DNA of 64,000 nucleotides, taken from contig CANQWK010000001.1 in NCBI GenBank assembly GCA_947627545.1, forward strand, positions 15,473 to 79,472, written 5' to 3'. Both the position numbers and the translations under genes were made by a program. The stretch is from an uncultured Clostridia bacterium (GTDB lineage: Bacteria; Bacillota; Clostridia; Christensenellales; UBA1242). Shown here one piece after another: positions 3,619 to 50,410 of this stretch (the stretch's first letter is position 1; each line of letters starts with the position of its first letter). The notes under the pieces are model-generated. The model was given only the letters and a program-made list of their open reading frames with translations. It made no database searches and was not told the DNA's origin.

Positions 3619-4053
3619 ATGGACTATATTTTAACAGAAAAACAAATGAAAGATTTTTTAAAGCGATGTTTAACAAAGCGTTGCGAAGAATTAAACACTA
3701 AAAGCGTTGCAACTATAAAAAATTGTAAATATCCAAAACTTTCATTAACAATTTCGGATAACGACCCTAAAATTAAAAAAGCATTTTTTTTATTGTTTAC
3801 AAATTTTGGAATTGATTATGATAAATCTTCTCCTATTTGCAAGAAAATGAATGAAATGTATATTGCTTATATGCACGAACTTTTTGGAGAAGAATATTTA
3901 ACCGAACTATTTAATTATAAATCTGAATATATTTCACAATTAAAAGATAACGAAACTTCTAAATATAAAGAAAAAATTAACGCACTAGATGAACAACTTG
4001 ATAAATTTTCTTTGTATATTGAAAAAATCCGCAAAAATTCTTTAAACCAATAA
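3619..4053 (+). CDS. Hypothetical protein (144 aa)
   Basis: Own promoter TTGACA-16 nt-TAAAAT with TGA extension, and AAGGAG 7 nt before the ATG. No recognisable domain. Confidence 0.6.
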   Translation: MDYILTEKQMKDFLKRCLTKRCEELNTKSVATIKNCKYPKLSLTISDNDPKIKKAFFLLFTNFGIDYDKSSPICKKMNEMYIAYMHELFGEEYLTELFNYKSEYISQLKDNETSKYKEKINALDEQLDKFSLYIEKIRKNSLNQ

Positions 4054-4067: not shown

Positions 4068-4096
4068 AAAAAAAGGAGATTTTTATCTCCTTTTTT
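4068..4096. terminator. Bidirectional rho-independent terminator between convergent genes
   Basis: A7-GGAGAT-tttt-ATCTCC-T6. It serves the 3619..4053 gene (+) and the giant gene (-). Confidence 0.8.
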
Positions 4097-4105: not shown

Positions 4106-7100
4106 TTAATCTTTTGGAGCAATTGTTTTTAAGTTATCATAACTTATATCAACTGTGGAGTTTTGAACATTTTTATATGAAATGCTTAAAACATTATCAT
4201 TTAACACAACGGAATATGTGTAAATTACTCCATTATGTGTTATAGTGTAAACCCCATTATCTGCTTTTAACTCTTTGCCATTTAAGCTTACAACAATGTT
4301 ATTTTGTTTTATTTCTATTGTTAAAGTTAAATTATCAACTGTTGTTAATTCTATTTTTGTTAAAAGCCAATCTTCAGTTTTTGTTATTATATCTAATTGC
4401 ACATCTTGATTAAACCTATATTCATTAGATAGTGTTGAATTAAATTGTTGTTCGCTTGAAACTAACGCATTATTTGGATTTTGCAAATCATCAAGGCTAT
4501 CAAAATGATATTCATTAACATTCAAATTGAATAATGCCGGTTCTATTTTTACATCTAAAATTATATTTTTTATTAATTTAAAGTTCACTTCAGTGTAGCC
4601 TAGCATGTTAGATGTTGCAACTTGTTCCCCTTCAATTTCTACATTTATTATATATTTTGTTAGTTCTTGTGGATAGAACACAAAATTGATTTCGTCCTCT
4701 TCGCTATCTTCGTTATATTGAAGATAATAATTACCGCTTACAAAATCCGCTATATTGGTTGTATATTGCACCAAATTTATTAAATCTGGGTTGCTGCTTG
4801 TAATGTTTAATGTTATGCTAAACTTTTGCCAATTTTCCACACCAAATTGAATTGTGTTATTAGCCAATGAACAGCATTCTTCAATAAGTTGTGATGTTAA
4901 AACTATGCGATTGCCTTCAAATGTAACTTTTTCATTTAACGAGTTGTAATAATAGAATGTTTTTAATTGATAATTATTTAAAATTACATTGTCGCTAAAC
5001 ATTATTGTGCTGCCAACATACGCACCTGTAATGTAATTAAATCTTCCATTTTGCGTGCTTGATTTTGAAGTTCTAATTGCATTTGTAAACATTGAATAGT
5101 AATTTTCATTTAAGTTATTTTCAAATTCAAGCCTTATGCTTTGTTTACTTAAATATATAATATATGTGCCTGCATTTGGATAATAATAAGGGTTACCGTT
5201 TGCGTCTTTATCTACTTTAAAATTGTTAATTAAAATTAAACCTTCGCTGGTAATGTTTAGTTGTTTAACGCCGTTAAAGTAAATGTGCCCTTCATAATTA
5301 TAGCCAGCATTCAAATTTAATTTTGCAACAACTTTGCGGTTTTCTCTTACATTAATTGTAGAGTTGCCTGAATAACTATCTTGCATACCGGTTTGTTCAT
5401 CAATAACCAAAATTTCAAATGTTCCAAAATCGTCAGTTGAATAAGCAAAATTTGCATCTCTTAACTGCATTTTAACTGTTATGTTTTGATTTGGTTTATC
5501 TTCCAAATATATTGAAATTTTAACTGCACCATAGTTGTAATCTCTATCTTGAACAATATATTCAAAGTTTGTGCTTCCAACAAAGTTGGCATTTACAACC
5601 ACTTCATTAATGACAATTCTGCCTTGATAATCTGCACTAATGTTTATAGCACCGTCAATTTTGCTATTAATGTTTAAATTAGATGTAGGTTGTAAGTTAA
5701 TGGCAGAAATAATTTGAGATAAACTTTCTAAGTTTGTTAGCGAATTGTTTAAATAATATTCAATTTGAACACTTAACAAATTTGGTATAAACGAAACTTC
5801 TAATTTAGAATTTTCTTCTATAGCAAAGTTGGTTGTTGTTAAAATTTCATTGTTTAAACTGAACTGTGCCGCTAAATATCTATTTGTATCGAATTGAGTT
5901 AAAATTTCGTTGTTTAAGCCAACATAACTTTCAACAATCATTAAAGCTGTGGTGTTTGACCTATAATAGCCATTAACAACATTTTCGTTTGCCTGTAAAG
6001 TTAATGTTTTGCTGTTGGTTGCCGAATTTGAAATTGTAATTTCACGTTCGGTTGAATTTGTATCATTTTCCATTGCTTTTACAAACACTTCAATTGTTAA
6101 GTTTGGCCTAACTTCCAACACCGAATAAATTGTTCTAAATTCCGCTAAGTTTGGCAAAATTATTGTAGGTTCAACGCCTAAATTGCTGCTTAAATATTGA
6201 TAAATATTGAATGTTCTTGTTGTAAATTCTGCATCGGCTAGTGGGAAAGGATAATTTGTAAATAAGTTATCTTTATTTAATGTTTTATTTGAGTTATAAG
6301 AATAACTTGAAATTGCAGCATACTCTGTTCCATCTTTGCCCTTATAACCATAATAACTTCCATTTCTTATTTTGCTAAACGCTTCATACAACGAAACATC
6401 TCTAACTTGAATGTTCCATTTATTGCCTTGAGTTGGAGTAATTGTGTCTAGCCAAGCATCTTCTCCTGTTTTGCTTGAATCATAAATTTTAATTTTATAA
6501 TCAAATATAATTAAATCGTTATTTATAACAATATCGCCTATATCGGTTTTATTAACCGCAAAGTCATCTAGGCCTTGCACTTTATTGCCTAACTTATCAG
6601 TTGCACAATAAAAGTTTTGCCTTAGCCAACTGCCTGTTAAATTTAAAACATAAGTTTGATTTATTGTTCCGTCTTCATTTTGCAATTGTTCGTTTCTCAA
6701 CAAAACAACGGTGTAAACTTTTTCTGGAGTTGTAATTTCTAGCACAAAAGCTTCTTCGGCAAACTCATATCCTATTTTTGCAGAATATCTTATTAAAATT
6801 TCGTCTTCAACTTTTACCGGAATGTTATTTATTGGCTGATATGAATTTAAATTATAATTTCTGCCGTTTATATATATTGAGAACGTTCCGGCTTGCTCGT
6901 TTGCCAATTTGACATCTATGCTATACCCAATTTTGCTAAACACAACATCAACATCAAACTCATTTCCAACCGCTAAATTGTGTGAATCTATTGTTTCTGC
7001 ATCTACAAAACTAGTGTAATTTAATGTTTCTTCATTATTCAACGGATATTTATATACATCGGCCGCCGTTTTGTTTTTCCACGTAATTGAACTAAACTTA

Positions 7101-10100
7101 TAGCCTATCATTTCATCATACAAGCCGCTAGCCATTGCATCAGGGTCTTGGCTTTGGTCGAATGTAATAAAGAATATATTGCTACCTGCATAGAACTTAA
7201 CTTTTTCTATTTTTGTTAATTTGCTTGTGTTAATTAAATCTACGCTTCCCGAACTAGCCATTTTGTTAGTGTATGATAGTAATTTTTCATCTGTCCACTG
7301 AATTGAACTATCAAATGAATAATATTGCATTTCGCCATCTAGGAAAATTGCAAGATAGTTTATTGAAGTGTTATCGTCAATTAAAGTGTCTTCAACCCTT
7401 ATAATAAAATATCCATATTCGCCTGCATTTTGCGTTTCGTCTAACAAGGTTTGAGGGCGTAAATAATAATATTTTCTAAAATAATATGGATTAATTGTTA
7501 AATTATAGCCTTCGCCTGCAACATAGCAACGAGTGTAATTCCATTTTTCAAAGATTAAAAAGTTGTTTTCTTCAACCGTTTGTGAATGCAAATCTTGATT
7601 GTACACATAGGTTTTATAACTCATTTTTATTGAATTGCCTGATGTATCGGAGCCATTGTTATACCACAAAATTAATTGATAATTTTCATCTAAGAAGGCA
7701 GGTAACTCTCCAACCAATTGATTGCTTGCAAAATAGATAAAGAATTTATCTTTAAAATCGTTTAAATTTGCCTCAAAAGAGGTAAATTGCTTTTCTTCAT
7801 TGCCGTCAAATGCCTCGGTTGTGCCAATTGTTAATGCGGCATCTTTATAGAACAACTTTCTTAAAATTGAAAAGAATTTACCGCCTTGCCCTGAAACTGA
7901 ATTGTTATAATTGGTTTTAAAATTAAACATAAATGTTGAATAGACATCTGTCCAAAAATAACTAGTTGCAAATTCTTCGTTGTTTTTAAATTCTGCATAA
8001 GATTTATATTCAAAATCTTCTTCTACATACAATTCTTTGCTTCTAAAATCGAAGAAGTCTATTGTGTTTGCACCTGCTTGTTTTAGTTCGTAGTCGTTAC
8101 TTGCTACAACATATTTTTCTTTATTATCTAATTTATCTTTAAAAGATTTTAGTCCGTCTAAATTCATTTTTATTTTATAAATGTTATCTAAAAATTGCGG
8201 AACTAAACTAATTGTGTAAATTTCATTTTCATAAGTATAACAGCCAAAAGGAATATTCCTATAATTCCACGCTGGATTTTCCTTACTATTTAACGAACTT
8301 GCACTAATTGTAGAATCTATAATTATAGTTTCCTCTACAGGATTGCCGCTTAAAGTTGGCAAGAAATATGCCAATGATTGACCATTTATTTGAGCATTCG
8401 TTTTTAAATAATTTGCACCGCTTAAATCGTACATTTCGCCATATTTAAAGAAGCGGCGGCTATCCATACTTGTACCATACATTTCTGGTTTTATTGTAGC
8501 TTCAGTCCAAACCGGAACCATTAAAATTTTAGGGCTTTCATTGCTGCTTGATGTTTTTTGCTGCAACAATTTTAAATAATCTATTAATTTTGCACCTTGC
8601 AACACATTAACATCTATTGAATTTGTTAATGAATCTGTGCATAACCAATTATCGTTTTCTTTATAAACATAATAGATTTGCTGCTTAAACATAAACATTA
8701 CTTTCCAGCCAACAATTTCGTAGCCATAATTGTAAACAAACCAATAATTGCTGCCGCTAAAACTTGTTGTGTTTTGATAATTTTTATCAAAATCTTGTGG
8801 TGCGTAGAAAGTAGTTTCATTGCCTGATTTTAAATGGCTGGTAAAGAAGACATATTTTTCATCACTTTTGTTAGATAATTCCAAGTTTATGGTTGGGCCT
8901 TCGCCTAAATTAAATTCTGTGGTTGTAGTTTCCGTTTTATTATTATTTAAATTACCACCCACTCCAAAATAATTTGAAAGGTTTTCTATATCATTGCCGT
9001 GAATAGATGTTAGCCCACCCGAAGCATTTTTTATCACGTTTTGAATGGTTATATCATAAATTTTAGACAAATAAGGTCTAATATAAGGGTCAAAATCCAT
9101 TGAACTAGCAAGTGCATTTAACGCACCATAACTGCCTATTTGCAAGCTGTTTATTAAATAGAAAGTTTCGTCAATGCCATAAACTGACTCGCCTAAACTA
9201 AATTTCCAAACTTCGTAGTCGGTTAAAGGAATGTTGCAACTAATGTCCGTTTTATCTTTATAGAACACAACCGAACCAGATGCATAAATTGAAAGCAATT
9301 TTTCAAAGTTTATTTCGGCATCGTTAAGTTTGCGGCGAACAAGTTGAGCTTCGTCAAAATATTCAACATACTCAAAGCCTTGGTCTATAAGCGCTTGTTT
9401 GTTTGCGGTTAGCAACCAGCCGTCAATTTCGCCAATATTTTCTGCCTGCTCATCTTTAACAATTTGTTTTAAATTAGTAAAGTCTATTTGCGTTTTAACA
9501 TTAAATGAAATTCCGGCATTGTTCCAAGCTTGTTCGTCTGCTAATTGATAATAAACCGGCAATTCATAATTAACAATATTAAAGCAAGCGTAATAGGTTA
9601 TGCTTTCGCTAATGTTTGAAATGCTTTCGCTATTTTTAAATTCTGTTCTGCCTATGTCCGCTTTGCTATACATAACCGGCACGCCATTTGAACTAAGCAC
9701 ATAGCCGCCGTTTGGATGCACATAAAAATTGGTCAATGCATCATTAATGCCTTGCACGTTAGCACTTATTTTAGGAATAATGTATATAACATATTCTCCA
9801 GATTGTGTAGTTGTTGCAAACGATTTTAAAAATTCTGGTGCGGTGAAAGTTAAAACATAATAATTGTTCATTTGTGCAAATGTTAAATTTGAGCCTACAA
9901 AAAGTTCAAAATCATATTTATATTGACTGCCTGCTTGATATCTTGTTTGCGAAACAAGTCCGCCTTCATTCAATTTAAAGTTTTCACCGTCAACGGTTAC
10001 GGCTTGGATTGTTTGCGTGAAAGATTTTAGTGTTAAGGTTAAATAAAGAGTGGTATCTGCTGTTAAATTTTTGCTGAAAAATGGGTTATCTAAGCTTGCA

Positions 10101-13100
10101 TCTTGTATGCTGTTCCAACTTAGCCCAGAATAATATGTTTTGAAACTTTCCAAATTGCCTTGATTTAAAAATTCATATCCATTGGCGTTAGCATAAGGAA
10201 TAGCAACATTGAATGTGTAATTTTTGCCGTCTATTGAAGAAATATTTAATGCTCCGTCAGCGCCGAATTGTAAATTTTGCCCAGAAATAAATTCAATTTC
10301 AATTATTGTTGTGTTGCTTGGGTCATAAATCCAATTTTTGTTAGATTCATCTTGATATTGATATTGAGATGTAATGTTAGCAATTCTATCTGCATGAGCC
10401 AATTTTCCAACCATAATTCGCAAAGTGTATGCCGAATAAGTTAATGTTAAATATGGCACATTGCTTTGTTCGTCTGTGGCATAATTTAATTTTAAAGCCG
10501 CCACATCGCCATAAGTTTCTGCATTAATTGCCGTTACTTTATAGTATTTTGCAGTTTTGTTTCCACATTGAACATATTTAGTATCAATTAAATCCTTTAT
10601 GGTAAACAAATAAATATAATAATCATTAACATTTCCGTTTCGGCTTTTATATAACTCTATTGTTGAATTTTTATGGTTTGCAAAATAATTGTCTATTTGC
10701 GATTGCGACATGTTAGAAAGTGCGTTGCTACTGCTTGTTCCGCCTAAATGAGTAAAGCCCTGTGCAATTAGCGCTTGCTTGTATGTGGTTATGGCAAATC
10801 CGTCATAAGCAGCACGCTGTTGACTATTGGTAATTCCCGATTTTACATCTTCTAGCACCTTGCTATTTAAGGTTAAATTTGTGCTGTAACCGGTTGTGTG
10901 AGATATTTGATATGCTCTATATGCCTGATTTGTATTTGCATCGGTTGAATAATATATTGCAATGTTGCTTGTGTACGCTTGCACGCCAATGTAAATGTTT
11001 AAATTTTGGCTAAAGCTTTGTTCGTCAAAATCAATGCCAGAATTAGTAAATTTAGGTAAATTATTGTAGTTTGTTGCGCTGCCATATTTATAAAACAACA
11101 TTGCATTGCTAATTTGGTTAGCCGTTGTAAAGTTATAATAACCACGCTTTGGCACTATGCAAACATAGTTAGAATAACTGTTTTTTATTCTCTCCGCCGT
11201 GGCAAAATCTTTAGCTACCAACACATACCTATTAGCGCCTATTTTTAAAACATAATAATCGGCATTTGTTTCTTGTAAATCTACCCTTGCACCAATTTCA
11301 ACATCAATGCTTAAACTTGTGTTGTTGTTTGATGCCGTGCTGTTATTGCCAAAATATACATGTGAACTATCTGCACTATAACTGCCGTTATAAAATAACC
11401 CATAAAAATTTATTTTGAATGTTTTTAACTGCAATTCACAACGAATTTCAGAATCTGCATCAATTTGCCCACCGGTGAAATTCTGCCAAGTTGAAGAACT
11501 TCCTATTTTAATTTTCCAACTAACAGTGTAATATTTTGCAATTTCATCTGCCTGGCTATCTGAACACATATAACTACCTTTGTTAAATGGAGATTCAGCA
11601 TAATAATAAACATCTAAATATTCTCTGCCAAATCCATGTTGGAAAGTTGAAAAGCTAAGCCCTTTATTAGATACGGACACCGAAGAAGACTTTTCAACAT
11701 TATAATCTTTTGAACTAAAATCTCCATCATTATCCTTATATTGCTTGCCGTCTTGATTGTTGCCTTTGTTATTATAATTATCAACAGTTAGTTTTACAGT
11801 ATCTCTATAATCTAAATCCAAAATGCAAGGAACGGTTGCTCCACAAGTAGTTTCGTTTTCCGAAGAGCCGCCTTGAACTATACTACTTTCCATACGTGGA
11901 ATGTTACCTAAACTAGAAAGCGGACCTTTAAAATAATATGCCATGTATTGTTTATTACCTGAACCTACAGAAACCAAAGTTGCACAATTTTTAACCGGAT
12001 TAGTACGAAGAACTGGTTTTTCAGGCAAACATATTAAAGCGGACAATGTTCGTATATTAGAAGCTGAGCCATGAAACTCATCATTAGTAAAAGTGCCAGT
12101 ACATAATCCTTGTTGATCATCCATAATTATTTCAAAAGTATATTTTGTTCCATTTATTTCTTGTGTTGCAAGTTCGCCACTAGAAACAAAATATATTTTA
12201 TTATCATCATTTAAATTTTTCAATGTATAATAAGAAAATGTTTTATATGTCATACTACTTCCAAATACTACAGGAGTAGTATATCTAGCCAATAGCGTAG
12301 GACCACTTAATTTATACCCATAACTTTTCCATATTGGATTTACTTCACTTACATTTACTTCATCATCAACGCCAACTAGTAACCCCCAATAACTTGAATA
12401 TAATTCTCCAAAATATGCGTTACCAATAGGAAAATTTGTTCCTACTCCGGATGAAGGGTCATAAACTCTTTTCCCGGCCAATATTGAGCCGTCATCAGTA
12501 ATAGAATAGCCGTATATATAATTTGAACCTGGTTTTTGTGTAAATCTTATAGTTATACTAATATAATTATAAACATTTTTCGTGTACCATGGGGAAGCAA
12601 GTTCATACAAATCACTCATAGGCAATGCATAAAAATCTGCATTACCAATTTCTTGTTTGCTGTTGCCAACTACTATACTTTTACCAACAAATTTACTATC
12701 TAGAAGTGAACCACTAAATTTACTCATATATATTAAATCATATTTCCAAGTAGCATAATTAAAATTAATTTTGTGTTCATTATCTATAATTTCAATTTCT
12801 AAATCGGTTGGTTTCCATATATTATTTGAGTTTTTAAAATAACCTAATTTTATATCATTTTCCCAAACATCTCCATTTGAAACGGCAAGTTTAAAATAAT
12901 CTAATTCAACCAAACTATACAAGAACAAACAACCATCATTTTTAAGCACATCTTCACCTATTATTGAGCCTTTTGTTGAGTCTTGTTTATAAAAATCATT
13001 TAAATTTGCAAGGTTTGATAGATAAGGAACACTCTCGCTATAAATTCCTAAAATTGGACATTCTTTACTGTCTTGAATATAAACAGGCTGTTTTCCTGTT

Positions 13101-15346
13101 CCAAATTCAAGGTGGTCTGTATTAAATACAATTTGATTTGAATTGCCAACACTTTTCGTTATATAATTATATGAGTTTTCATTGCCATCAAACGGAATTA
13201 TATCATTGCCATTTGTAAACCTAGAATCTTCTCCATTATATTTTACAAATTGATATTCTCCCGTTTTGCTAACAATAAAACCTTGAAAATTGATTTTTAC
13301 GCTGTTAGGGTCTTTTTCAAATTCCACTTCTAATGTGTAACCTTCGCTTAAAGAACCTGTTATTCTAACAGATTTTAACGAATAACCTCCGCTTGGCCAC
13401 ATTCTGAAAGCATAATCTAAAATATATGCTTCATATTGATTATATAGAAAATCACTATCTTCTACTTTACTTTCTATTTTATTTCGTGAACTTGGTTTTA
13501 TTGGTCCAACTCTTCCAAGCCCATTAATATTAAATTCATACTTTATTTCTTGCGATGCACTAAATGGGTCATAAGGCAAACAAACTTTGTTCATGTCATA
13601 CTCTCTAGGCTGAGAAGTTGTATTTTTAACACTTCCTAAAAAAGTATTTTCAGTTGAAGAATAATAATCATCAGGGTCTAAATTTTCTGTATATTTCCAA
13701 TAAGGAATACTTGCATCAACAGTTCCTTTACCTGTTATTTCCACTTTTAATGGATGAGATTTTATAGGCGAAAAATTACTTACAGTATAATCATAGTAAT
13801 CATTGGTATAATCATTAAGGCTGCTGTTTTCAACTAAAAAGCCTAAAGGTAATGGGCAACCATTATTGCAATTGTACCCACTAGGAACATACCAAGAATT
13901 TCCTTTATTAAAATTTTTAATTTTTGAAACTTTTCCATATTCCAAATCATTTACTATTAAGCAAGAATCATCTGTTTGAATATAATGATTACCAAAACCT
14001 TCGTTTATTATATAATTAAAACAATTACCTAAAACCACACTTAATTGGTCTCTAATTGGTTTTGAGTTATATCCAGTGTCAATAAAAAACTCATCATCAT
14101 ATTCTGTTGAAGGAAACCTATAATTGTTTTGTTGATGAATTTTTTCAGTTGAACGACCTTGGTCTGGGTAATAAAAATTAAATCTATCTAATTTAGTATA
14201 AAAATTCGCATTATAAATTGTATCATACAAACAATGTTCATAGTTTTCTCCTTCACCTCCATATGAATTGTAAGCCGCTATATCTACTACGCAAGAACTA
14301 CAATTCATACTGCTATTGCTTCCAACCAAATCCCCTCGAAAATAACATTTATCAATATCTACTTTTGAAGGGTATGCGTATCTTTCTAATTTACTAAAAA
14401 ATCCTACTACACCAGCAACCATTACTGAAGGAATTTCTGGTGGTGGAACAGCATTCCCAAAATAATCTTCTTTTGCGCTAATGTGAACTCCATAGCAATT
14501 AAATCCATTATAGTCATATGCTTTTCCATAAGCTTCTGAACAATTAATGTTGCAATCAATTGAACAGTTCTTAATTATAGCTTTTTTATTATCATCAAGC
14601 GAAGCATTTACTGAACCAACTAGTCCACCAGTTGCATTAAATCTTTCATCTTTTGCTTCAGCAACAAGATTATATGCCCAAGCCGAATTAACAATTGAAC
14701 CATTCGATATAACACAATTTCTTATAATGCATTGTTCTGGATATTCATCATTATCGGCTATTTTGCCAACTAAACAACCTACGCTAACAACTTCATCATA
14801 AGTGTTTGTTCCTGAATATTCTCCGCTAATATTAATGCTTATGTTTGCCAATCTCAAATTTGCAATTTCCGCATTGCATATATAACCGAAGAAACCCACC
14901 GTGGCATAAGTATCTACATAACTAGAACTGTTAGTTGTGTTAATTGATATGTTAGCAATTGTATGATAATTTCCATAAAACCAACCTCTAAAACAAGACT
15001 TATAACCATATCCTGCCTTAGTATAATATCCTATTGGAATCCATTCTTTATTATTTAAATCTATATCGGTTGTTAAATAGATGCTTTTTCCTAAAAAATC
15101 ATAATTATTATTAACTAAATCTCTAAAAATTCCAAGTTCATTTGCAGAATTAATAGAAAAATCTGAGTTATGTAAATATACAGAATTTCCGCCATTGTTT
15201 AAGTCTGTTATTGAAACAGTTGCTGCCTTAACACTGCGATTTTCTTTTGTTTTGCCCAAAACAGCCACAAGCGAAATTGCGGCGGTTAATGATAGCGCCA
15301 ATGCTATAATGCTAATTAAAACTTTTTTTAATAATGTAGTTTTCAT
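4106..15346 (-). CDS. Giant secreted or cell-surface protein (3,746 aa) with an N-terminal signal/anchor and a GLUG-like beta-helix region
   Basis: Single uninterrupted ORF of 11,241 nt. The N-terminus MKTTLLKKVLISIIALALSLTAAISLVAVLG...SVKAA looks like a signal peptide. Residues ~45-360 show repeated GFFG/GCLVG/GGLVG...I.NC.I turns (GLUG-like). The rest is N/Y/T-rich with recurring GY-x-[FLI] modules. No LPXTG or SLH motif is present. Confidence 0.9.
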   Translation of the reverse strand: MKTTLLKKVLISIIALALSLTAAISLVAVLGKTKENRSVKAATVSITDLNNGGNSVYLHNSDFSINSANELGIFRDLVNNNYDFLGKSIYLTTDIDLNNKEWIPIGYYTKAGYGYKSCFRGWFYGNYHTIANISINTTNSSSYVDTYATVGFFGYICNAEIANLRLANISINISGEYSGTNTYDEVVSVGCLVGKIADNDEYPEQCIIRNCVISNGSIVNSAWAYNLVAEAKDERFNATGGLVGSVNASLDDNKKAIIKNCSIDCNINCSEAYGKAYDYNGFNCYGVHISAKEDYFGNAVPPPEIPSVMVAGVVGFFSKLERYAYPSKVDIDKCYFRGDLVGSNSSMNCSSCVVDIAAYNSYGGEGENYEHCLYDTIYNANFYTKLDRFNFYYPDQGRSTEKIHQQNNYRFPSTEYDDEFFIDTGYNSKPIRDQLSVVLGNCFNYIINEGFGNHYIQTDDSCLIVNDLEYGKVSKIKNFNKGNSWYVPSGYNCNNGCPLPLGFLVENSSLNDYTNDYYDYTVSNFSPIKSHPLKVEITGKGTVDASIPYWKYTENLDPDDYYSSTENTFLGSVKNTTSQPREYDMNKVCLPYDPFSASQEIKYEFNINGLGRVGPIKPSSRNKIESKVEDSDFLYNQYEAYILDYAFRMWPSGGYSLKSVRITGSLSEGYTLEVEFEKDPNSVKINFQGFIVSKTGEYQFVKYNGEDSRFTNGNDIIPFDGNENSYNYITKSVGNSNQIVFNTDHLEFGTGKQPVYIQDSKECPILGIYSESVPYLSNLANLNDFYKQDSTKGSIIGEDVLKNDGCLFLYSLVELDYFKLAVSNGDVWENDIKLGYFKNSNNIWKPTDLEIEIIDNEHKINFNYATWKYDLIYMSKFSGSLLDSKFVGKSIVVGNSKQEIGNADFYALPMSDLYELASPWYTKNVYNYISITIRFTQKPGSNYIYGYSITDDGSILAGKRVYDPSSGVGTNFPIGNAYFGELYSSYWGLLVGVDDEVNVSEVNPIWKSYGYKLSGPTLLARYTTPVVFGSSMTYKTFSYYTLKNLNDDNKIYFVSSGELATQEINGTKYTFEIIMDDQQGLCTGTFTNDEFHGSASNIRTLSALICLPEKPVLRTNPVKNCATLVSVGSGNKQYMAYYFKGPLSSLGNIPRMESSIVQGGSSENETTCGATVPCILDLDYRDTVKLTVDNYNNKGNNQDGKQYKDNDGDFSSKDYNVEKSSSVSVSNKGLSFSTFQHGFGREYLDVYYYAESPFNKGSYMCSDSQADEIAKYYTVSWKIKIGSSSTWQNFTGGQIDADSEIRCELQLKTFKINFYGLFYNGSYSADSSHVYFGNNSTASNNNTSLSIDVEIGARVDLQETNADYYVLKIGANRYVLVAKDFATAERIKNSYSNYVCIVPKRGYYNFTTANQISNAMLFYKYGSATNYNNLPKFTNSGIDFDEQSFSQNLNIYIGVQAYTSNIAIYYSTDANTNQAYRAYQISHTTGYSTNLTLNSKVLEDVKSGITNSQQRAAYDGFAITTYKQALIAQGFTHLGGTSSSNALSNMSQSQIDNYFANHKNSTIELYKSRNGNVNDYYIYLFTIKDLIDTKYVQCGNKTAKYYKVTAINAETYGDVAALKLNYATDEQSNVPYLTLTYSAYTLRIMVGKLAHADRIANITSQYQYQDESNKNWIYDPSNTTIIEIEFISGQNLQFGADGALNISSIDGKNYTFNVAIPYANANGYEFLNQGNLESFKTYYSGLSWNSIQDASLDNPFFSKNLTADTTLYLTLTLKSFTQTIQAVTVDGENFKLNEGGLVSQTRYQAGSQYKYDFELFVGSNLTFAQMNNYYVLTFTAPEFLKSFATTTQSGEYVIYIIPKISANVQGINDALTNFYVHPNGGYVLSSNGVPVMYSKADIGRTEFKNSESISNISESITYYACFNIVNYELPVYYQLADEQAWNNAGISFNVKTQIDFTNLKQIVKDEQAENIGEIDGWLLTANKQALIDQGFEYVEYFDEAQLVRRKLNDAEINFEKLLSIYASGSVVFYKDKTDISCNIPLTDYEVWKFSLGESVYGIDETFYLINSLQIGSYGALNALASSMDFDPYIRPYLSKIYDITIQNVIKNASGGLTSIHGNDIENLSNYFGVGGNLNNNKTETTTTEFNLGEGPTINLELSNKSDEKYVFFTSHLKSGNETTFYAPQDFDKNYQNTTSFSGSNYWFVYNYGYEIVGWKVMFMFKQQIYYVYKENDNWLCTDSLTNSIDVNVLQGAKLIDYLKLLQQKTSSSNESPKILMVPVWTEATIKPEMYGTSMDSRRFFKYGEMYDLSGANYLKTNAQINGQSLAYFLPTLSGNPVEETIIIDSTISASSLNSKENPAWNYRNIPFGCYTYENEIYTISLVPQFLDNIYKIKMNLDGLKSFKDKLDNKEKYVVASNDYELKQAGANTIDFFDFRSKELYVEEDFEYKSYAEFKNNEEFATSYFWTDVYSTFMFNFKTNYNNSVSGQGGKFFSILRKLFYKDAALTIGTTEAFDGNEEKQFTSFEANLNDFKDKFFIYFASNQLVGELPAFLDENYQLILWYNNGSDTSGNSIKMSYKTYVYNQDLHSQTVEENNFLIFEKWNYTRCYVAGEGYNLTINPYYFRKYYYLRPQTLLDETQNAGEYGYFIIRVEDTLIDDNTSINYLAIFLDGEMQYYSFDSSIQWTDEKLLSYTNKMASSGSVDLINTSKLTKIEKVKFYAGSNIFFITFDQSQDPDAMASGLYDEMIGYKFSSITWKNKTAADVYKYPLNNEETLNYTSFVDAETIDSHNLAVGNEFDVDVVFSKIGYSIDVKLANEQAGTFSIYINGRNYNLNSYQPINNIPVKVEDEILIRYSAKIGYEFAEEAFVLEITTPEKVYTVVLLRNEQLQNEDGTINQTYVLNLTGSWLRQNFYCATDKLGNKVQGLDDFAVNKTDIGDIVINNDLIIFDYKIKIYDSSKTGEDAWLDTITPTQGNKWNIQVRDVSLYEAFSKIRNGSYYGYKGKDGTEYAAISSYSYNSNKTLNKDNLFTNYPFPLADAEFTTRTFNIYQYLSSNLGVEPTIILPNLAEFRTIYSVLEVRPNLTIEVFVKAMENDTNSTEREITISNSATNSKTLTLQANENVVNGYYRSNTTALMIVESYVGLNNEILTQFDTNRYLAAQFSLNNEILTTTNFAIEENSKLEVSFIPNLLSVQIEYYLNNSLTNLESLSQIISAINLQPTSNLNINSKIDGAINISADYQGRIVINEVVVNANFVGSTNFEYIVQDRDYNYGAVKISIYLEDKPNQNITVKMQLRDANFAYSTDDFGTFEILVIDEQTGMQDSYSGNSTINVRENRKVVAKLNLNAGYNYEGHIYFNGVKQLNITSEGLILINNFKVDKDANGNPYYYPNAGTYIIYLSKQSIRLEFENNLNENYYSMFTNAIRTSKSSTQNGRFNYITGAYVGSTIMFSDNVILNNYQLKTFYYYNSLNEKVTFEGNRIVLTSQLIEECCSLANNTIQFGVENWQKFSITLNITSSNPDLINLVQYTTNIADFVSGNYYLQYNEDSEEDEINFVFYPQELTKYIINVEIEGEQVATSNMLGYTEVNFKLIKNIILDVKIEPALFNLNVNEYHFDSLDDLQNPNNALVSSEQQFNSTLSNEYRFNQDVQLDIITKTEDWLLTKIELTTVDNLTLTIEIKQNNIVVSLNGKELKADNGVYTITHNGVIYTYSVVLNDNVLSISYKNVQNSTVDISYDNLKTIAPKD

Positions 15347-15527
15347 TTTTACCCCTATCCCCTACTATTATGTTTCTTGTTTATAGTTTTGCAAATTTTA
15401 TGTGTTTACTTTTTGATTGAGTTATAAATTTAAACAGCCAAATAATTTTAACAACAAATGCCTTAAATTTTTTAAAAGCCAATTAATTTCAATTAAAACT
15501 AATTTTTGAAATAATATTCTTATGAAT

Positions 15528-15556
15528 ATTATACCACTTGATAAATGTTTTTACAA
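15528..15556 (-). promoter_or_regulatory. Candidate promoter of the giant gene
   Basis: On the minus strand: TTGTAA (15556-15551), 17-nt spacer, TGG-TATAAT (15536-15528). This implies a ~180-nt 5' UTR. Confidence 0.5.
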
Positions 15557-15751: not shown

Positions 15752-16621
15752 ATGGAAGACATAAACAAAACAATTGGCAAAAATTTGTTAACCTTACGCA
15801 AGATGGCAAAATTAACGCAATTAGAATTAGCCGAAAAATTTAATTATTCCGATAAAAGCATTTCTAAATGGGAAGCGGGAGAATCTTTGCCTAGCGTGGA
15901 AATTTTATATAATTTATGCAATTTTTATGGTGTAACGCTAGATAATCTTACGCAAGAAGAAATGATAATTGAGCCTAAGCGAAAATCTATAACAAGCAAA
16001 TTTATTCCTAACTTACCGGTAAGGCTTATAATAACCCTGCTAGCCGTTAGTGCCGTGTGGTTGTTAGCAACAATATTGTTTGTTTCATTTAAAATTTCTT
16101 TTAACATTAACATTGGAATGTTTTTTATGTGGGCTGTTCCGCTTTCCTGCATAATTTTGATTATTTTTAACAGCATTTGGGGGCGAAGTTCACTTTTGCT
16201 TTACATTTTATCGTTGCTAATATGGTCAACTTTGGCATGTGTGCATGTTCAACTTTTAAAATATAATTTATGGATGGTGTATTTGTTAGGCATTCCGCTT
16301 CAAGTTGCAATAATTTTATGGGCATGTCTTTTAAAGAAACGAAATCAACCTAAGCCTAAAAAGATAAAAGAAATAAAACCTAAAAAAGAAAAACATAAAA
16401 AAGAGAAAAAAGCAAAAATTAAAGATAAAGATAAAAATAATTTAAATGTAAAACCAGATTTTAATTCAAACTTAAAAAATGAAGAAACCAATATTGAAAA
16501 CAATTTAAACAGCCAGGCGGAAAAAGATAATGCTCAAACTTCGCCTGCAAAAAAAAGTAAAAAGAAAGGCAAAACCTCTGCGAATGATGACTTTGGGTTT
16601 GACTTTATTCAGCATAAATAA
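15752..16621 (+). CDS. Membrane-tethered XRE-family HTH regulator with a lysine-rich C-terminal tail
   Basis: N-terminal HTH_3 pattern (LRKMAKLTQLELAEKFNYSDKSISKWEAGESLPSVEILYNLCNFYGVTLDNL) followed by ~4 TM helices. It ends in a KPKKIKEIKPKKEKHKKEKKAKIKDK tail. Confidence 0.85.
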   Translation: MEDINKTIGKNLLTLRKMAKLTQLELAEKFNYSDKSISKWEAGESLPSVEILYNLCNFYGVTLDNLTQEEMIIEPKRKSITSKFIPNLPVRLIITLLAVSAVWLLATILFVSFKISFNINIGMFFMWAVPLSCIILIIFNSIWGRSSLLLYILSLLIWSTLACVHVQLLKYNLWMVYLLGIPLQVAIILWACLLKKRNQPKPKKIKEIKPKKEKHKKEKKAKIKDKDKNNLNVKPDFNSNLKNEETNIENNLNSQAEKDNAQTSPAKKSKKKGKTSANDDFGFDFIQHK

Positions 16622-16630: not shown

Positions 16631-17365
16631 ATGAAAGTAGTTTTTGTTGTTGATTCTTTAAACGATTTAAATAAAAAAATTGCCATGTTGCAATCTCATT
16701 TTGGCAATGATATTATATATATTGTTAAAGCAAATTTAGCAAAAATTTTTAAAACTTATGGGCATTTTGAAAGTGCGGTTTATTACAATAATTTATCTAA
16801 AATAATTCATTACACTTTGCTTAAATTAGATGTCTCTAGTTTGGTTATTTGTTATGCTAGTTTGGAGTTTGACAGCAAACTTTTAGAAAGGTTTATTGAA
16901 CAGATTAAAGACGGACAAAAAGTTGTAAATGTTATGCCAAATTATAACATTTTAGAGCAATTTTCTAACGTTGTTTACAATTTATATGTAAAGGCAATTT
17001 TTAAAAATGAAGATAGTTTAGCAAGTCCTAAATTGCAATATTTGCCACAAGCTTGCGTGCAAGAACTTTTACAATCTCACCTTGGCAACAAAATGTTTGC
17101 AATGCCAAGCAATTTAACCAACACTATGTATGTGGAAGACAAAAAAATTAATTCATCTTTAAAAATAAAAACAGGTTTTAACAAATTTAGCCTTTTACCA
17201 ATAATTATTACCCTTATAATAACCGCTTGTTTAATAATGTCACTTGCCTTTTGGGGTTTAAATTTCTTTACAATTTTTATTTTTGTTTTGCTTTATATTT
17301 TAGATATATTTTTAAGCATTGTTTTTAGTTGTAAAAATTATTTTGATAACCGATTTTTAAAATGA
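16631..17365 (+). CDS. Hypothetical protein with two C-terminal TM helices
   Basis: Begins 9 nt after the XRE gene with an AAGGA Shine-Dalgarno, so it is probably co-transcribed. A soluble N-terminal ~190 aa is followed by 2 TM helices. No catalytic motif recognised. Confidence 0.6.
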   Translation: MKVVFVVDSLNDLNKKIAMLQSHFGNDIIYIVKANLAKIFKTYGHFESAVYYNNLSKIIHYTLLKLDVSSLVICYASLEFDSKLLERFIEQIKDGQKVVNVMPNYNILEQFSNVVYNLYVKAIFKNEDSLASPKLQYLPQACVQELLQSHLGNKMFAMPSNLTNTMYVEDKKINSSLKIKTGFNKFSLLPIIITLIITACLIMSLAFWGLNFFTIFIFVLLYILDIFLSIVFSCKNYFDNRFLK

Positions 17366-24512: not shown

Positions 24513-25355
24513 CTAAAATATTTTTACCGCAGTACAACCGCATGGTAACACAATGCCTTCCTCCGCTGTGGGCAAGCCAATTTCGTAGCATTCAGTTTTT
24601 CCGCCTTTAATGGTTGAATTTAATATGTTTTGCATAACCGTAGGCTGTAAACCTGTTGTGTAACTATTAATTAAAACAAAAAGTGGATTTTTTGTTAAAA
24701 CCTTTGAGCATAACAACACAAAATTAAAAATATCGCTTTCAATTTTCCAAGTTTCTCCTTTGGGGCCTCTACCAAAAGAAGGAGGATCCATTATAATTGC
24801 ATCATATAAATTGCCTCGCCTAATTTCGCGTTCTAAAAATTTTACACAATCGTCCTGAATAAAACGAATTGAATTAACATTGTTTAATTCTGCATTTATT
24901 TTTGCTATGTCAATCATGCTTTTTGCTGAATCTACATGTGTAACTTTTGCACCGGCAACCGCACAAGCGACACTTGCCGCACCTGTATATGCAAACAAAT
25001 TTAAAACTTTAATTTCGCGCTTGCTGTTTTTTATTAAATCTGTCATTAAATCCCAATTAACTGCCTGCTCGGGAAACAAACAAATATGTTTAAAACTCAT
25101 AGGTTCTATATGAAATTTTAAGTTTTTTCGGCTAATTTCAAAAGATTTTTTAAAATTTTTGCTAAATTTCCACTCTCCTGACTTATTTTCAGTTCTTGTG
25201 TAACAGGCATCAACTTTTGTAGATAATTTTTTATTTGTGTTCCAAATAACTTGAGGGTCAGGCCGCAAAAAAGTAAAACCGCCAATTCGTTCTAACTTTT
25301 CTCCATTTGCAGTTTCTAAAACCTGATAATCTTTCCAATCTGTTGCAATTTTCAT
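24513..25355 (-). CDS. Class I SAM-dependent (rRNA) methyltransferase, RlmI/YwbD-like
   Basis: VLNLFAYTGAASVACA (SAM-binding motif I) and IIMDPPSFGRG (DPP motif IV). Confidence 0.85.
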   Translation of the reverse strand: MKIATDWKDYQVLETANGEKLERIGGFTFLRPDPQVIWNTNKKLSTKVDACYTRTENKSGEWKFSKNFKKSFEISRKNLKFHIEPMSFKHICLFPEQAVNWDLMTDLIKNSKREIKVLNLFAYTGAASVACAVAGAKVTHVDSAKSMIDIAKINAELNNVNSIRFIQDDCVKFLEREIRRGNLYDAIIMDPPSFGRGPKGETWKIESDIFNFVLLCSKVLTKNPLFVLINSYTTGLQPTVMQNILNSTIKGGKTECYEIGLPTAEEGIVLPCGCTAVKIF

Positions 25356-26074
25356 TAATACACATCCAAAATCTTTTTCATATCAATAATATCTGAATAA
25401 GAAATTATTGCAAGCGGTTTTGCAGTATCTTTGCCGTTTTTTGTTATTAATATAATGAGCAATTTTCGGTTGTTCTCAAAAAAATTCATGGCTTGGTCTA
25501 TTGTTAAATCGGCATCTGCCAACATAAAATAATAATCTTCCCCCATTTCATTCATTATTGAGCCAACTGTTGCATTATCTACATACTCTTGCAAATTTAC
25601 GCCGTCTGCAATTTTGTTGCCCAAAACCGCAACCAATTTTCTAGCATTTAAAATTCCTATTAAATTTTCGCCTTTATATGTTGGCAAATTAGAATATCCG
25701 CTTCGCGCAATAAGTTCTATTGCTTTGCCAATTTTCATATCGTCATTAATTGTTATAACTTCTTTTTTTCCAACTCTATCTATTGCTTTTGGTGGCTCGG
25801 CTATAAGGGCAGCCAATTTTTCTATTTTATCAACAATATCATCATGTGGCTCGGCAATAATAAACTTGTTGTTGCCTTGGTGAATAATTGCATTGCGAAG
25901 CCTACCAAAATCAATTAAATCTTCTTCATATTTTCTTACAACCGAATTTAAAACAACGCTACGCCTTACAACATCGCTAAATGACATACTTCTTTTAAAA
26001 TCGTAAATGGTACGCAAACTGTAATCAATTTGATTGTAAGCGGTTATAAACTTTTCAGCATTAGTTTTTTTCAT
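25355..26074 (-). CDS. CBS-pair protein with an N-terminal HEPN-like (Rx4H) domain
   Basis: Start refined to ATG 26074, with AGGAGA 4 nt upstream. The N-terminal ~100 aa contain GRLRNAIIH. The C-terminal ~130 aa form two CBS repeats (SGYSNLPTY..., LLIILITKNGK...AIISYSDII). Confidence 0.75.
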   Translation of the reverse strand: MKKTNAEKFITAYNQIDYSLRTIYDFKRSMSFSDVVRRSVVLNSVVRKYEEDLIDFGRLRNAIIHQGNNKFIIAEPHDDIVDKIEKLAALIAEPPKAIDRVGKKEVITINDDMKIGKAIELIARSGYSNLPTYKGENLIGILNARKLVAVLGNKIADGVNLQEYVDNATVGSIMNEMGEDYYFMLADADLTIDQAMNFFENNRKLLIILITKNGKDTAKPLAIISYSDIIDMKKILDVY

Positions 26075-26180
26075 AACTTCTCCTATAATAATTATAACAA
26101 AAAAATTTAATTTTACAAATGAAAAAGAGCAAGTTCTTATCATAAATTAGATAATTCTTGCTCAATTTAAAATATTTTTG

Positions 26181-26759
26181 TTAAACTTCAGCTTTTTTTA
26201 AATCTTTGTAAATTGTAGATTCCCTTGAAAATAAAATATATTCTCCTAAAATAGAACCGCCAATTAGCGAATATATGTAATATTCTAGGCTTGGATAATT
26301 GTAATTAACGCAAAAATCATCAATTCTAACTCTTTCGCCTTTATATCTATTTTGAAGTTTTCGTAATTCTTCTAATTTTTTTTGGAATAGTAATTTGCGA
26401 GAAAATGTTTTATCATCAAACTTGCTGCCAAAATTTTTTGTTAAAATTCCTTTTATTTTTTCGTGTGTAGCAATGTCGATAATTTTAAAAATTTTTTTGT
26501 CTATATTATAATTTACTCCATCAATTAAAATTAATCCTTTTGAAGATGGAGTAAAATATGATGTTAAATCTTTATCTAAATCGGCATTATTTAAGCCGTA
26601 ACTTTCAAACGCTTTGCATTTTTCTTTTATTATTGACGCATAATTATAGAACACATCTTGAAAAATATCGTCTAAACATTGTTCAAAATTAAAGGTATTA
26701 AAATTAAATTCAATATTGCCAGAATTAGTGTTTTGGTCAGGTCTATCTAAATTTTCCAT
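26181..26759 (-). CDS. Hypothetical protein (192 aa)
   Basis: Start refined to ATG 26759 (MENLDRPDQ), preceded by an AAAGAGGTG Shine-Dalgarno. No recognisable domain. Confidence 0.6.
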   Translation of the reverse strand: MENLDRPDQNTNSGNIEFNFNTFNFEQCLDDIFQDVFYNYASIIKEKCKAFESYGLNNADLDKDLTSYFTPSSKGLILIDGVNYNIDKKIFKIIDIATHEKIKGILTKNFGSKFDDKTFSRKLLFQKKLEELRKLQNRYKGERVRIDDFCVNYNYPSLEYYIYSLIGGSILGEYILFSRESTIYKDLKKAEV

Positions 26760-27020
26760 AACACACCTCTTTAATATAATAGCACATAAAATGCCGTTCG
26801 TCAATAGGCTTTTTTAAAATTTACAAGTAATTATTTTTTTAATTTTACTTTTTTACACAAAAAATTAAACTTTAAATTGCTTTTTATACTGTTTTTAAAA
26901 AAATTAAATTTAAATTGTGTTATGGAAAAAATTAATTTCATAGTGTTATATTAAAAATTTAAGTTTTAAACGCATTTTTTGCTAAAAAACAGCTATTTTT
27001 AAGAAAAATTTTAAAATTGG

Positions 27021-40547: not shown

Positions 40548-40568
40548 AAAAAAGGTGCTAATGCACCT
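40548..40568 (-). terminator. Terminator overlapping the stop codon of the ABC exporter operon
   Basis: On the minus strand, AGGTGC-atta-GCACCT followed by T6. The stem includes the last codons and the TAG stop of 40558..42627. Confidence 0.65.
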
Positions 40569-44383: not shown

Positions 44384-44830
44384 AACTTTACCCTTTTAGT
44401 TTTAATTTTTAAGTTGATTTTAAATTGTAAATTAAACACTAAAATTTGCAATTTAATAATTTTAAATAATTTAATAGCATAGACCTTTATTTAGTTAAAA
44501 AATTTTTTTAATTTTTAAAATGACTAATTGCCTAAACTAATAAAAATATAATTATATATAGTATCAAATTGCAACAATAATGTCAAACATTATATTTAAA
44601 TTAAAAATTTTATATTTATTTAAAAAAAATTTTAAAATCAACATAAAAAATACTATTTTTTAACCTAAATATATATGAAAAAAAACAATTTTCTGCAAAT
44701 TGGTTTTTTGTTTTTTTATATTTTTTAACTTAATTAAAAATTAATATTGTTAAAAATTTCTTAAAAAATTATGTTAAAAATTATGTGTTTAAATTACTAA
44801 TTAAAAACTAATGTATAAAATTTAATGCGT

Positions 44831-45892: not shown

Positions 45893-46053
45893 TCGCCAAC
45901 CTCCTTTTAATTTTATTTAATGTATTATAACAAAAAAAATTAGTCTTGTAAATTATTTTTCGACATTTTTTGCTTTATTAACTTAAATCTTAATTAATAC
46001 TTTATTTAATTTCCATTTAATGCTTTATTAAAATTTAAATTTTTAATAACCTT

Positions 46054-46401
46054 TTATGCCGTAATTCCAAGACTAATCATTATTGCAATATCTACTTTTT
46101 TCATTGTGTTTTCATCAATTTGCGTTATTTTTTCTTTAAGCCTGCGTTTATCTAGCGTTCTCAATTGTTCAAGCAGAACAATGCTATCTTTATCCAAATT
46201 ATATTTATCTTTATTAAGTTCAATGTGAGTGGGAAGTTTTGCTTTGGTAAGTTGACTTGTTATTGCCGCAATAATAACCGTAGGACTATATTTATTGCCA
46301 ACATCGTTTTGAACAACTAACACAGGGCGAACTCCACCCTGCTCGCTGCCTACAACGGGACTTAAATCTGCATAAAAAATGTCGCCACGAACAACTTCCA
46401 T
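46054..46401 (-). CDS. mazF: mRNA interferase toxin, EndoA/MazF family
   Basis: [29 protein letters not shown]...KLPTHIE...[13 protein letters not shown] closely follows the B. subtilis EndoA (NdoA) sequence as recalled. An AAGGAG Shine-Dalgarno precedes the start. Confidence 0.92.
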
Positions 46402-46560
46402 TACTCTCCTTTAATTGATAAAATTTTTAAATTTTATTTTTTTAGATAAATTAAAAAATTAAATTAAACGCTTAAAAATACTAAAAAATTTTTGAATTTC
46501 AGTGTTTTTTAGCCTAATTTTTATATTTTTATAAATTTTTTGCCTTATTTTTAATTTTTT

Positions 46561-46755: not shown

Positions 46756-46777
46756 ATATTCTCCCAACTAACAAAAT

Positions 46778-47218: not shown

Positions 47219-47369
47219 AATTCCTCCCAAATTGAACTAAATTTATTTAACAAGAATTTTTTTAAAATATTTGTAATTCAAACAATAAAATTCCTACACC
47301 ATTAGTTTTAGTTAAAAAAAAATAATTATGCAAAAGAAAAACAAATTGTCATTCTAAAAATGCACAAAC

Positions 47370-50408: not shown

Positions 50409-50410
50409 GT

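Follow-up and report, generated by a model that had tools for sequence, protein, structure and literature searches.

What kind of protein is encoded by an 11.2-kb gene on the chromosome of an uncultured Clostridia bacterium, and can so large a gene be taken at face value? The question concerns the 64,000 nucleotides at positions 15,473 to 79,472 of contig CANQWK010000001.1 (GenBank assembly GCA_947627545.1), which we call the window, and an open reading frame (ORF) on its minus strand that codes for a protein of 3,746 amino acids (aa), hereafter the giant. The giant was found to belong to a family of similarly large proteins that share a single-copy C-terminal core, and we consider it, with a probability of about 0.55, to be a Sec-exported, acidic, beta-rich multi-domain fibre of the cell surface with an adhesin-like role. 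As far as the searched databases and literature show, this family has not been described before, and the same holds for its non-repetitive core of 1,600 aa, its terminal motif and its confinement to a gut lineage with reduced genomes; giant exported beta-rich surface proteins with beta-solenoid heads are well known as a general type.

The 11.2-kb gene is real. The ORF listing contains one uninterrupted frame, as the initial annotation had claimed; it has an ATG start and a product of 424 kDa and takes up 17.6% of the window, whose runner-up ORF has 1,148 aa. At the G+C content of the window (29.6%) a stop is expected about every 14 codons, and the chance of 3,746 stop-free codons at the window base composition has a log10 of about -125. 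The G+C content is even across the gene and matches that of the surroundings. By exact look-up, the protein sequence was found to be encoded on several public contigs, and on the two of these that were read, from the separately deposited metagenome assemblies ERZ27249268 and ERZ27249505 (loci L001 and L002), the 11,241-nt gene occurs with 0 mismatches and the same neighbours. An identical gene with the same neighbours on separate contigs speaks against chimerism. Moreover, both the head and the last 2,200 aa of the C-terminal part can be aligned with relatives co-linearly and free of frameshifts. An assembly or annotation artefact might be suspected because the sequence is metagenome-derived and because residues ~720-1514 have no external homologue that would confirm the frame; however, the two separately deposited assemblies, the improbability of such an open frame and the co-linear alignment of the parts flanking this orphan region make an artefact exceedingly improbable.

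The giant is acidic (pI 4.7, computed for residues 42-3746), rich in Asn, Ser, Tyr and Thr, and contains 1% Cys. All the motifs that the initial annotation had quoted (VGFFGY, VGCLVGK, TGGLVGS, NANGYEF, AKIGYEF, NYGYEIVGW, LNAGYNYEG and PSGGYSL) are present in the translation, and the gene is free of tandem repeats at the DNA level, in agreement with what it had noted. At the protein level, self-BLASTP revealed no significant internal repeats, the best pair being residues 1515-1637 and 1975-2097 (E 0.002). The full-length sequence matched nothing in Pfam and NCBIfam at E <= 1 and nothing significant among PDB sequences, ten 400-aa tiles gave only noise against Pfam at E <= 10, and profile searches of PDB sequences were empty.

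The relationship to other proteins was revealed by the C-terminal half. Residues 2001-3746 retrieve two further giants, P0015 and P0016, at 25-27% identity and co-linearly to their last residues. A profile (A1, ~1,170 positions) was built from residues 2180-3379 of the giant together with P0015 and P0016 and was searched against 1.84 billion representative proteins. The search matched 123 clusters (defined at 50% identity), and for 103 the E-value was 1e-30 or lower. Among those, 81 members are 1,818-4,629 aa long; the others are mostly fragments, and the matches are always co-linear. The A1 score of the giant itself (1,716 bits, positions 1-1173) is partly circular, because the giant is one of the three seeds, and its membership is confirmed by independent pairwise matches to family members. 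The giant also has the family traits, namely the co-linear core, a hydrophobic region (h-region, residues 9-31) and a terminal Y-D-N-L-K-T-I. The body that had been described as a long, degenerate array of beta-modules is instead, over its last ~1,600 aa, the single-copy, co-linear core of a giant-protein family, and a conserved motif at the extreme C-terminus of this family had been overlooked.

No meaningful Pfam domain was found in 24 members that have the minimal architecture of ~1,900 aa. The family alignment of 11 sequences (A4) is too divergent for deriving search patterns. Scans of GTDB species genomes with peptides of the giant itself found no relative, core motifs gave no match in 2.9 million IMG/VR contigs or in JGI metagenomes, and no published description of the family was found in the literature on GLUG giant proteins or on the family-level lineage UBA1242.

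A direct comparison is offered by a positional orthologue from a related genome, P0049 (4,350 aa; GCA_947628205.1, locus L085). It is 33% identical to the giant over residues 1517-3745 (23-43% per 250-residue block) and 24% identical over the first ~720 residues, and the flanking genes at L085 are 57-90% identical to those of the window (Ppx 87, MinD 90, L27 89, MreB 78, HTH 58, Prp 57). The giant thus diverges fast, and the family changes length by modules, as is typical of exposed proteins.

The features of the gene and its immediate surroundings are listed in Table 1. Within the lineage-specific region, residues ~465-720 are weakly common to P0049 only, and residues ~720-1514 have no detectable relative, the orthologue included; a homology search with residues 690-2000 found nothing. 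Unit B is common to the closest subfamily (P0049 and P0051, partly P0060 and P0064) and aligns by BLASTP with two tandem copies in P0049 (E 2e-44 and 8e-29). Its assignment relies on BLASTP, because local phmmer missed the similarity. The family-wide unit A was found by an iterated profile in 142 copies in 94 proteins, with one copy in the giant, five in P0031 and six in P0033. Some relatives carry it in 2-6 tandem copies, and the length of family members varies thereby; its YNYGYEIVGW is among the best conserved motifs of the family.

Table 1. Coordinates of the giant gene, its segments and the adjacent features in the window.
Feature	Position	Strand	Basis or remark
Coding sequence	4106..15346	-	11,241 nt; stop TAA at 4106-4108
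N-terminus, residues 1-41: n-region (3 Lys), 23-residue uncharged h-region (9-31), KTKENRSVKA|A	15224..15346	-	Only hydrophobic segment
Predicted GLUG-type beta-solenoid head, residues ~45-375	14222..15214	-	Remote homology and AlphaFold2 model
Lineage-specific region, residues 376-1514	10805..14221	-	Homology searches
Unit B (1515-1975) and partial second copy (1975-2148), residues 1515-2148	8903..10804	-	BLASTP
Unit A, residues 2149-2559, with YNYGYEIVGW	7670..8902	-	Iterated profile; family-wide module
Single-copy co-linear C-terminal core, residues 2560-3746	4109..7669	-	Profile and alignment; predicted beta-sandwich chain
Extreme C-terminal motif VLSISYKNVQNSTVDISYDNLKTIAPKD, residues 3719-3746	4109..4192	-	Family consensus Y-x-x-Y-K-x-I plus 1-5 residues
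Promoter-like TTGTAA-17-TGgTATAAT, extended -10	15528..15556	-	10/12 consensus positions; consensus match only
Leader (5' untranslated region), ~175 nt	15347..15520	-	Length inferred from promoter match
Hairpin terminator AAAAAAGGAGAT-AAAA-ATCTCCTTTTTT, 12 bp	4069..4096	-	Usable from both strands
Membrane-bound XRE-type regulator, HTH_3	15752..16621	+	Pfam HTH_3 E 1.8e-13; divergent from giant
244-aa protein (orf244), hydrophobic C-terminal end	16631..17365	+	No Pfam match; conserved neighbour

When the C-termini of 97 family members were compared, the Y of the terminal motif was present in 94, the K in 83 and the I in 84, and in 71 of the 81 sequences that have the motif the chain ends 1-5 residues past it (4 residues in the giant). 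The motif has no counterpart among the NCBIfam sorting signals; it could act as an anchor or as an assembly strand, or be just the last hairpin of a capping domain. The conservation at this end also bears on whether the giant could be a polymorphic toxin or a contact-dependent inhibition effector. Its size, its presumed export and its fast evolution would suit this reading, as would the small ORFs in the vicinity (144 aa at 3619-4053). However, the polarity is reversed, the C-terminus being conserved and the N-terminus variable; Pfam and NCBIfam detected no domain of the toxin, Rhs/YD, LXG or filamentous-haemagglutinin type, the 144-aa ORF lies on the opposite strand, and no variable C-terminal toxin domain with a cognate immunity gene was seen in the family, so we regard a toxin as highly improbable.

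In order to visualise the core, residues 2547-3746 were modelled with AlphaFold2 (AF2) from 11 sequences. The mean predicted local distance difference test score (pLDDT) was 68, with 606 residues at 70 or above, and the model consists nearly entirely of strands that form successive sandwiches; the last domain, which holds the terminal motif, reached a pLDDT of ~80. The model thus depicts small beta domains in a chain, a type of architecture used in extracellular fibres, by which homology is not implied. When this model was compared with the PDB by Foldseek, the top match was the neck of the grappling-hook protein GhpA (E 7e-8), and further matches were the Vps13 adaptor-binding domain, the Streptococcus T-antigen, the pilins PitA, SpaC, BcpA and RrgB, and the B. 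anthracis TIE protein, each at 7-11% sequence identity. Several fragments of Aureispira GhpA (PDB 9flp, 9flw, 9flv, 9fls and 9flu) match the core, but with 9% identity, a very high root-mean-square deviation and a probability of 0.72 the likeness is one of domain type only. GhpA is a giant extracellular protein built as an array of beta-sandwiches and serves to catch other cells; its organism is of another phylum, and it is secreted by another route (the type IX secretion system of Bacteroidota).

The likeness to Gram-positive pilins and fibrillar adhesins with Ig-like or CnaB-type domains (T-antigen, PitA, SpaC, BcpA and RrgB) is that of exported, acidic chains of beta-sandwiches, with Foldseek E-values of 4e-6 to 1e-3 and probabilities of up to 1.00. 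The differences are as clear: identity is 7-11%, the giant has neither a sortase signal nor a Pfam match to an isopeptide domain, and its domains are not sequence repeats of one another but stand in a fixed, co-linear order across the family.

The resemblance of the body to Listeria-Bacteroides (InlB B-repeat) modules, which had been suggested initially, received weak support. The family does share strand endings of the G-Y-x-[FI]-x-G-W type with such proteins, and some matches in BFVD are annotated as Internalin B or Bacterial repeat domain. On the other hand, the models Flg_new (PF09479) and Flg_new_2 (PF18998) matched neither the giant, nor its tiles, nor the 24 family members; the relative P0055 gave a sub-threshold Flg_new_2 score (19.5 vs 23.6 bits). 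The top PDB matches are pilin-type sandwiches, and no InlB structure is among the top 50. The BFVD matches of the core (E 4e-17 to 3e-11) are proteins of ~600-1,340 aa on gut contigs labelled 'Siphoviridae sp. ct...' and on crAss-like contigs, some of them annotated as Baseplate J-like.

The head of the giant was identified from remote homology. Residues 1-689 retrieve seven proteins in the homology search (E 9.6e-13 to 5.6e-5), six of which carry Pfam Glug at E <= 0.01, five above the gathering score; they also carry M26_N, DUF6562 or pectate-lyase-like domains. By pairwise BLASTP, P0001 was aligned through its GLUG / M26_N region to residues 62-372 (E 1e-14; a second pairwise E-value to GLUG proteins was 8e-14), and the cap (residues 56-175) aligns with a second copy in P0001 and with an NCBI 'GLUG motif-containing protein'. 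In common with GLUG / M26_N proteins (PF07581, PF05342), the giant has, after an N-terminal hydrophobic segment, the cap SxxEL..F...VN....F.GK.I.L..DIDLN...W.PIG....F.G.F.GN.H.I.N., followed by hydrophobic-Gly turns (G.VG.....I.NC). The Pfam Glug model itself gives 8.4 bits (E 4.2) on the first tile of the giant, against a gathering score of 20.5 bits, and does not match the full length, so the giant is a divergent GLUG relative and not a member at the database level; on the heads of relatives the model gives 23.0 (P0051), 19.7 (P0059) and 15.8 bits (P0115). An AF2 model made with the relatives as alignment predicts paired short strands for residues ~55-365, with a mean pLDDT of up to 95 per 10-residue block. 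Such paired strands are expected of a beta-solenoid, and the GLUG-like reading of the head, already put forward in the initial annotation, is supported by these alignments and by the model, although the Pfam threshold is not reached.

The giant differs from GLUG / M26 surface proteins in having no detected G5 Pfam domain and no LPxTG, and its other 3,300 residues are unrelated to them. Unlike the M26 IgA1 / Zmp proteases, it has no M26 catalytic domain (Peptidase_M26_C) and no HExxH anywhere, and the possibility that it is an M26 protease was therefore rejected. An unknown-function PHROG matches residues 69-177 in the head cap (E 8.5e-5), and nine of the ten 400-aa tiles were unmatched in PHROG. 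A 561-aa ORF without a Pfam match, located upstream of glmM in a metagenome-assembled genome (MAG) of a Candidatus Onthoplasma sp. (L009, 6214-7899, minus strand), resembles the head of the giant, with 30% identity over residues 54-282 (E 8e-10).

A head of this type raises the question of whether the giant is a released or surface-bound glycan enzyme or binding protein, in which the beta-solenoid head would be catalytic or carbohydrate-binding, like pectate-lyase-like and tailspike folds, and the body a spacer. GLUG regions occur in M26 proteases and beside pectate-lyase-like domains (as in the Pfam matches of P0001), the weak Foldseek top list of the head model consists of beta-helix proteins (PfbA, the HK620 tailspike, polygalacturonase and Ag43), and the V-x-A after the h-region would permit cleavage by signal peptidase and release. 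Yet no Foldseek match of the head is significant (best E 0.15), neither HExxH nor any catalytic Pfam domain is present, and the core, which is without a catalytic signature, is kept in most family members although these have no GLUG head. The conserved function should therefore reside in the core, and a glycan-active protein seems improbable to us.

The N-terminus resembles a Sec signal or signal-anchor, as had been noted: the hydrophobic segment is followed by S38-V-K-A-A42. Whether it is a signal-anchor or a long cleavable Sec signal appears, from the sequence, to be about an even choice. In 80 full-length family members there are typically 3-4 K/R and an h-region with a median of 21 residues, and a V-x-A motif recurs 8-12 residues past the h-region in many of them. 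An uncleaved signal-anchor is suggested because the h-region is long, because by inspection it is more alike between the giant and P0049 than the head is, and because four charged residues lie between the h-region and the nearest A-x-A-like site. Cleavage is suggested because V-x-A recurs, and because the polarity of a conserved C-terminus and a variable N-terminus resembles that of wall-anchored proteins with a varying distal end. Were the N-terminal helix to stay uncleaved and serve as the anchor, the head would be membrane-proximal and not at the tip.

The lack of a recognisable anchor, reported in the initial annotation, was confirmed. The giant protein contains no LPx[TSA][GAN] motif and no C-terminal transmembrane segment, no window beyond residue 33 being hydrophobic, and no sorting-signal model of NCBIfam matches it at E <= 1. 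SLH, CWB2 and choline-binding domains gave no Pfam match, either at full length (E <= 1) or in the ten tiles (E <= 10). A sortase (LPXTG) substrate was rejected on the grounds of the missing motif, C-terminal hydrophobic segment and sorting-signal model; a lipoprotein was likewise rejected, because the first Cys does not occur before residue 118 and there is thus no lipobox.

The window is chromosomal and includes lgt, glmM, ung, the L21-Prp-L27 cluster, an M50 protease, MinD, MreB, Ppx, PolA, PFOR, Tex and a large signal recognition particle RNA. In L085 the gene run Ppx-MreB-MinD-MinE-M50-L21-Prp-L27-orf244-HTH precedes P0049. A second conserved locus, after PemK and a 351-365-aa gene, harbours P0016, P0033, P0077, P0102 and P0061 (the last on a short contig), in one case with two tandem giants. 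The window has the backbone of this PemK locus as well, at 44.8-56.9 kb, and its Tex is 87% identical to that of L086. All the contexts examined therefore come from one lineage of low-G+C uncultured gut Clostridia.

GlmM of the host is closest, among the matches listed, to Candidatus Onthoplasma and other gut Clostridia MAGs (52-57% identity). Candidatus Onthoplasma belongs to the GTDB family UBA1242, has genomes under 1 Mb and is without many biosynthetic pathways; a supply of metabolites by partner cells has been proposed for it (PMC12306168). The Onthoplasma-like relatives listed have lgt-glmM-ung and then IleRS, with no syntenic giant. Even the proteins L21, L27, MreB, GlmM and Tex of the host remain singletons when 15 billion proteins are clustered at 90% identity, which means that very little sequence has been sampled from this species and those close to it. 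In-frame stops in a gene of L004 had raised the suspicion that relatives use genetic code 4; this was discarded, as the stops occur only at the end of the range and the window uses TGA as a stop.

These conserved loci are relevant to another explanation, that the giant is a structural envelope or coat protein (S-layer- or sheath-like), of which at least one copy would be kept per genome as the main surface building block. In all the contexts examined, family members stand at conserved chromosomal loci and are surrounded by housekeeping genes, the promoter has an extended -10 and comes close to the consensus, the acidic, Cys-poor composition is that of many S-layer proteins, and the core is long, conserved and non-repetitive. 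However, the searches detected neither SLH nor CWB2 nor any further wall-binding module, the 2.5-fold variation in module copy number and total length would be uncommon in a lattice former, and known S-layer proteins are far smaller; an envelope protein is therefore judged unlikely.

The same context bears on an origin as a receptor-binding or tail-fibre-like protein of a phage or mobile element. Such an origin could account for the best structural matches of the core on human-gut Siphoviridae and crAss-like contigs, for the single PHROG match of the head, and for the integrase genes downstream of the orthologue in L085. But the neighbours in the window (lgt, glmM, ung, L21/Prp/L27, MinD and MreB) include no phage genes, nine of ten tiles are without a PHROG, no relative turned up when 2.9 million IMG/VR contigs were scanned with family motifs, the G+C content matches the surroundings, and the gene is syntenic in two genomes. 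A phage derivation is accordingly very unlikely.

We thus return to the adhesin-like surface fibre, for which the following sequence of events may be envisaged. Sec would export the giant, and a long fibre would stand on or extend from the cell surface; its layout would comprise the N-terminal hydrophobic segment, the GLUG head, the lineage-specific modules, the ~1,600-residue chain of beta-sandwiches and the terminal hairpin. The fibre would attach to a partner cell, a host surface or a particle, the variable N-terminal modules meeting the outside and giving specificity, and the conserved core serving as the shaft. The reading frame, the family, the homology of the head, the predicted beta-rich fold, the synteny and the fast divergence are shown directly, whereas export, surface location, adhesion and the choice of the anchored end are all inferred. 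A fibrillar adhesin is generally defined by repeated stalk domains, an adhesive domain and an anchor. In the giant a chain of beta-sandwiches is predicted at the place of the stalk, yet with neither sequence repetition nor a known stalk Pfam domain; a recognised adhesive domain and a recognised anchor were not detected, an N-terminal hydrophobic segment being all that is present.

It is important to mention the points that weigh against this interpretation. The likeness to beta-sandwich proteins is generic, with identities of 7-12% and low global template-modelling scores. No known adhesive, lectin or anchor domain was found in the Pfam and NCBIfam searches, and a membrane-proximal head, if the N-terminus is uncleaved, would fit the classical head-on-stalk adhesin poorly. 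Export and topology are deduced from the sequence. About 1,100 residues (376-1514) are bare of structural or homology information: the AF2 run on residues 35-1234 resolved the head only, and residues 376-1514 have a single-sequence pLDDT below 50, which is uninterpretable. As regards the host, the placement in UBA1242 relies on one protein, GlmM, among the matches listed, and the estimate given below for the share of the genome depends on the genome size of relatives.

The signals flanking the gene agree with what the initial annotation had described, that is, an own promoter, a long 5' untranslated region, a bidirectional terminator and a divergent regulator. The TTGTAA...TATAAT block is kept upstream of the positional orthologue in L085. 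A Shine-Dalgarno-like AGGGG is located at 15352-15356, 5 nt ahead of the ATG, and no Rfam family was found in the leader at gathering score. The terminator hairpin is flanked by two stop codons, that of the giant gene at 4106 and, on the other side, that of a convergent ORF of 144 aa at 4053. An invertible promoter was considered and is unsupported, because no convincing inverted repeats flank the promoter, only AT-rich pairs of low identity. The orthologous leader in L085 (9434-10000) contains G+C-rich repeats of ~50 nt, direct and inverted (GTCATCCTAGGCAAACGGGGCGTGCTGC...), which look like miniature inverted-repeat transposable elements and are absent from the leader in the window.

The HTH_3 regulator has several hydrophobic segments, as judged by eye, and a Lys-rich tail. 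Its counterpart in L085 is 58% identical and is also adjacent to the giant gene, but inverted: the gene is divergent from the giant in the window and co-directional at L085 8588-9433. Only the HTH_3 gene was inverted locally, since the adjacent orf244 keeps its orientation. The orf244 product is 61% identical in L085, where its gene is adjacent to the HTH and giant genes. A regulatory link between the HTH_3 gene and the giant may be presumed.

Further observations concern the two loci at which giants occur. Downstream of the orthologous giant in L085 lie two phage-integrase-family genes and an excisionase-like HTH_17 gene (25279-26877); the corresponding place in the window is occupied by orf144, ung and glmM. 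The PemK locus of the window (40558-56941, minus strand) comprises PFOR, Tex, a protein with only a Spo0A_C domain, two Gate proteins, ArsP_2, orf150, PemK/MazF and orf353. The orf353 homologue of related genomes (L004, L086, L088, L089 and L090) is followed by one or two giants; the window has a pair of ABC exporter genes (42620-44383 and 40558-42627) at this place instead. The orf353 product (44831-45892, minus strand, 353 aa) has a weak Rho_N-like N-terminus as its sole Pfam signal and is 39-44% identical to the product of the gene that immediately precedes the giant in L004, L086 and L088; in L089, L090 and L091 genes of similar size (353-365 aa) at the same place were matched by size only. 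The Spo0A_C-only protein (49989-50441, minus strand, 150 aa) is essentially the C-terminal DNA-binding domain of Spo0A (E 1.8e-19) with no receiver domain, and such proteins are also present in L086 and L088 (115-121 aa).

What the family means for its hosts can be outlined with some caution. The giant adhesins of Patescibacteria and Mollicutes, comparable in context only, are likewise very large, N-terminally hydrophobic and fast-evolving, and belong to reduced-genome, partner-dependent organisms; neither a sequence link nor a demonstrated functional one connects them with the giant. It is conceivable, though doubtful at present, that the family is a lineage-defining attachment organelle of reduced-genome, partner-dependent gut Clostridia (UBA1242-like), a Firmicutes counterpart of those adhesins, in which the core and the Y-x-x-Y-K-x-I hairpin would represent a new way of fibre assembly or tethering, for example strand donation or wall docking without sortase, SLH or lipid anchors. 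Nothing yet demonstrates a new mechanism for this family.

If the genome of the host is under 1 Mb like those of its nearest listed relatives (PMC12306168), the giant gene would make up more than 1% of it, and genes kept at such cost in shrinking genomes usually mediate the key interaction of the organism with its surroundings. The profile of the 1,600-aa core offers a tool for a census of the family, the terminal motif is perhaps a new anchoring or assembly signal, and the hypervariable N-terminal modules may encode partner specificity. Being invisible to Pfam, NCBIfam and the PDB, the family therefore marks unannotated surface biology in an uncultured gut lineage.

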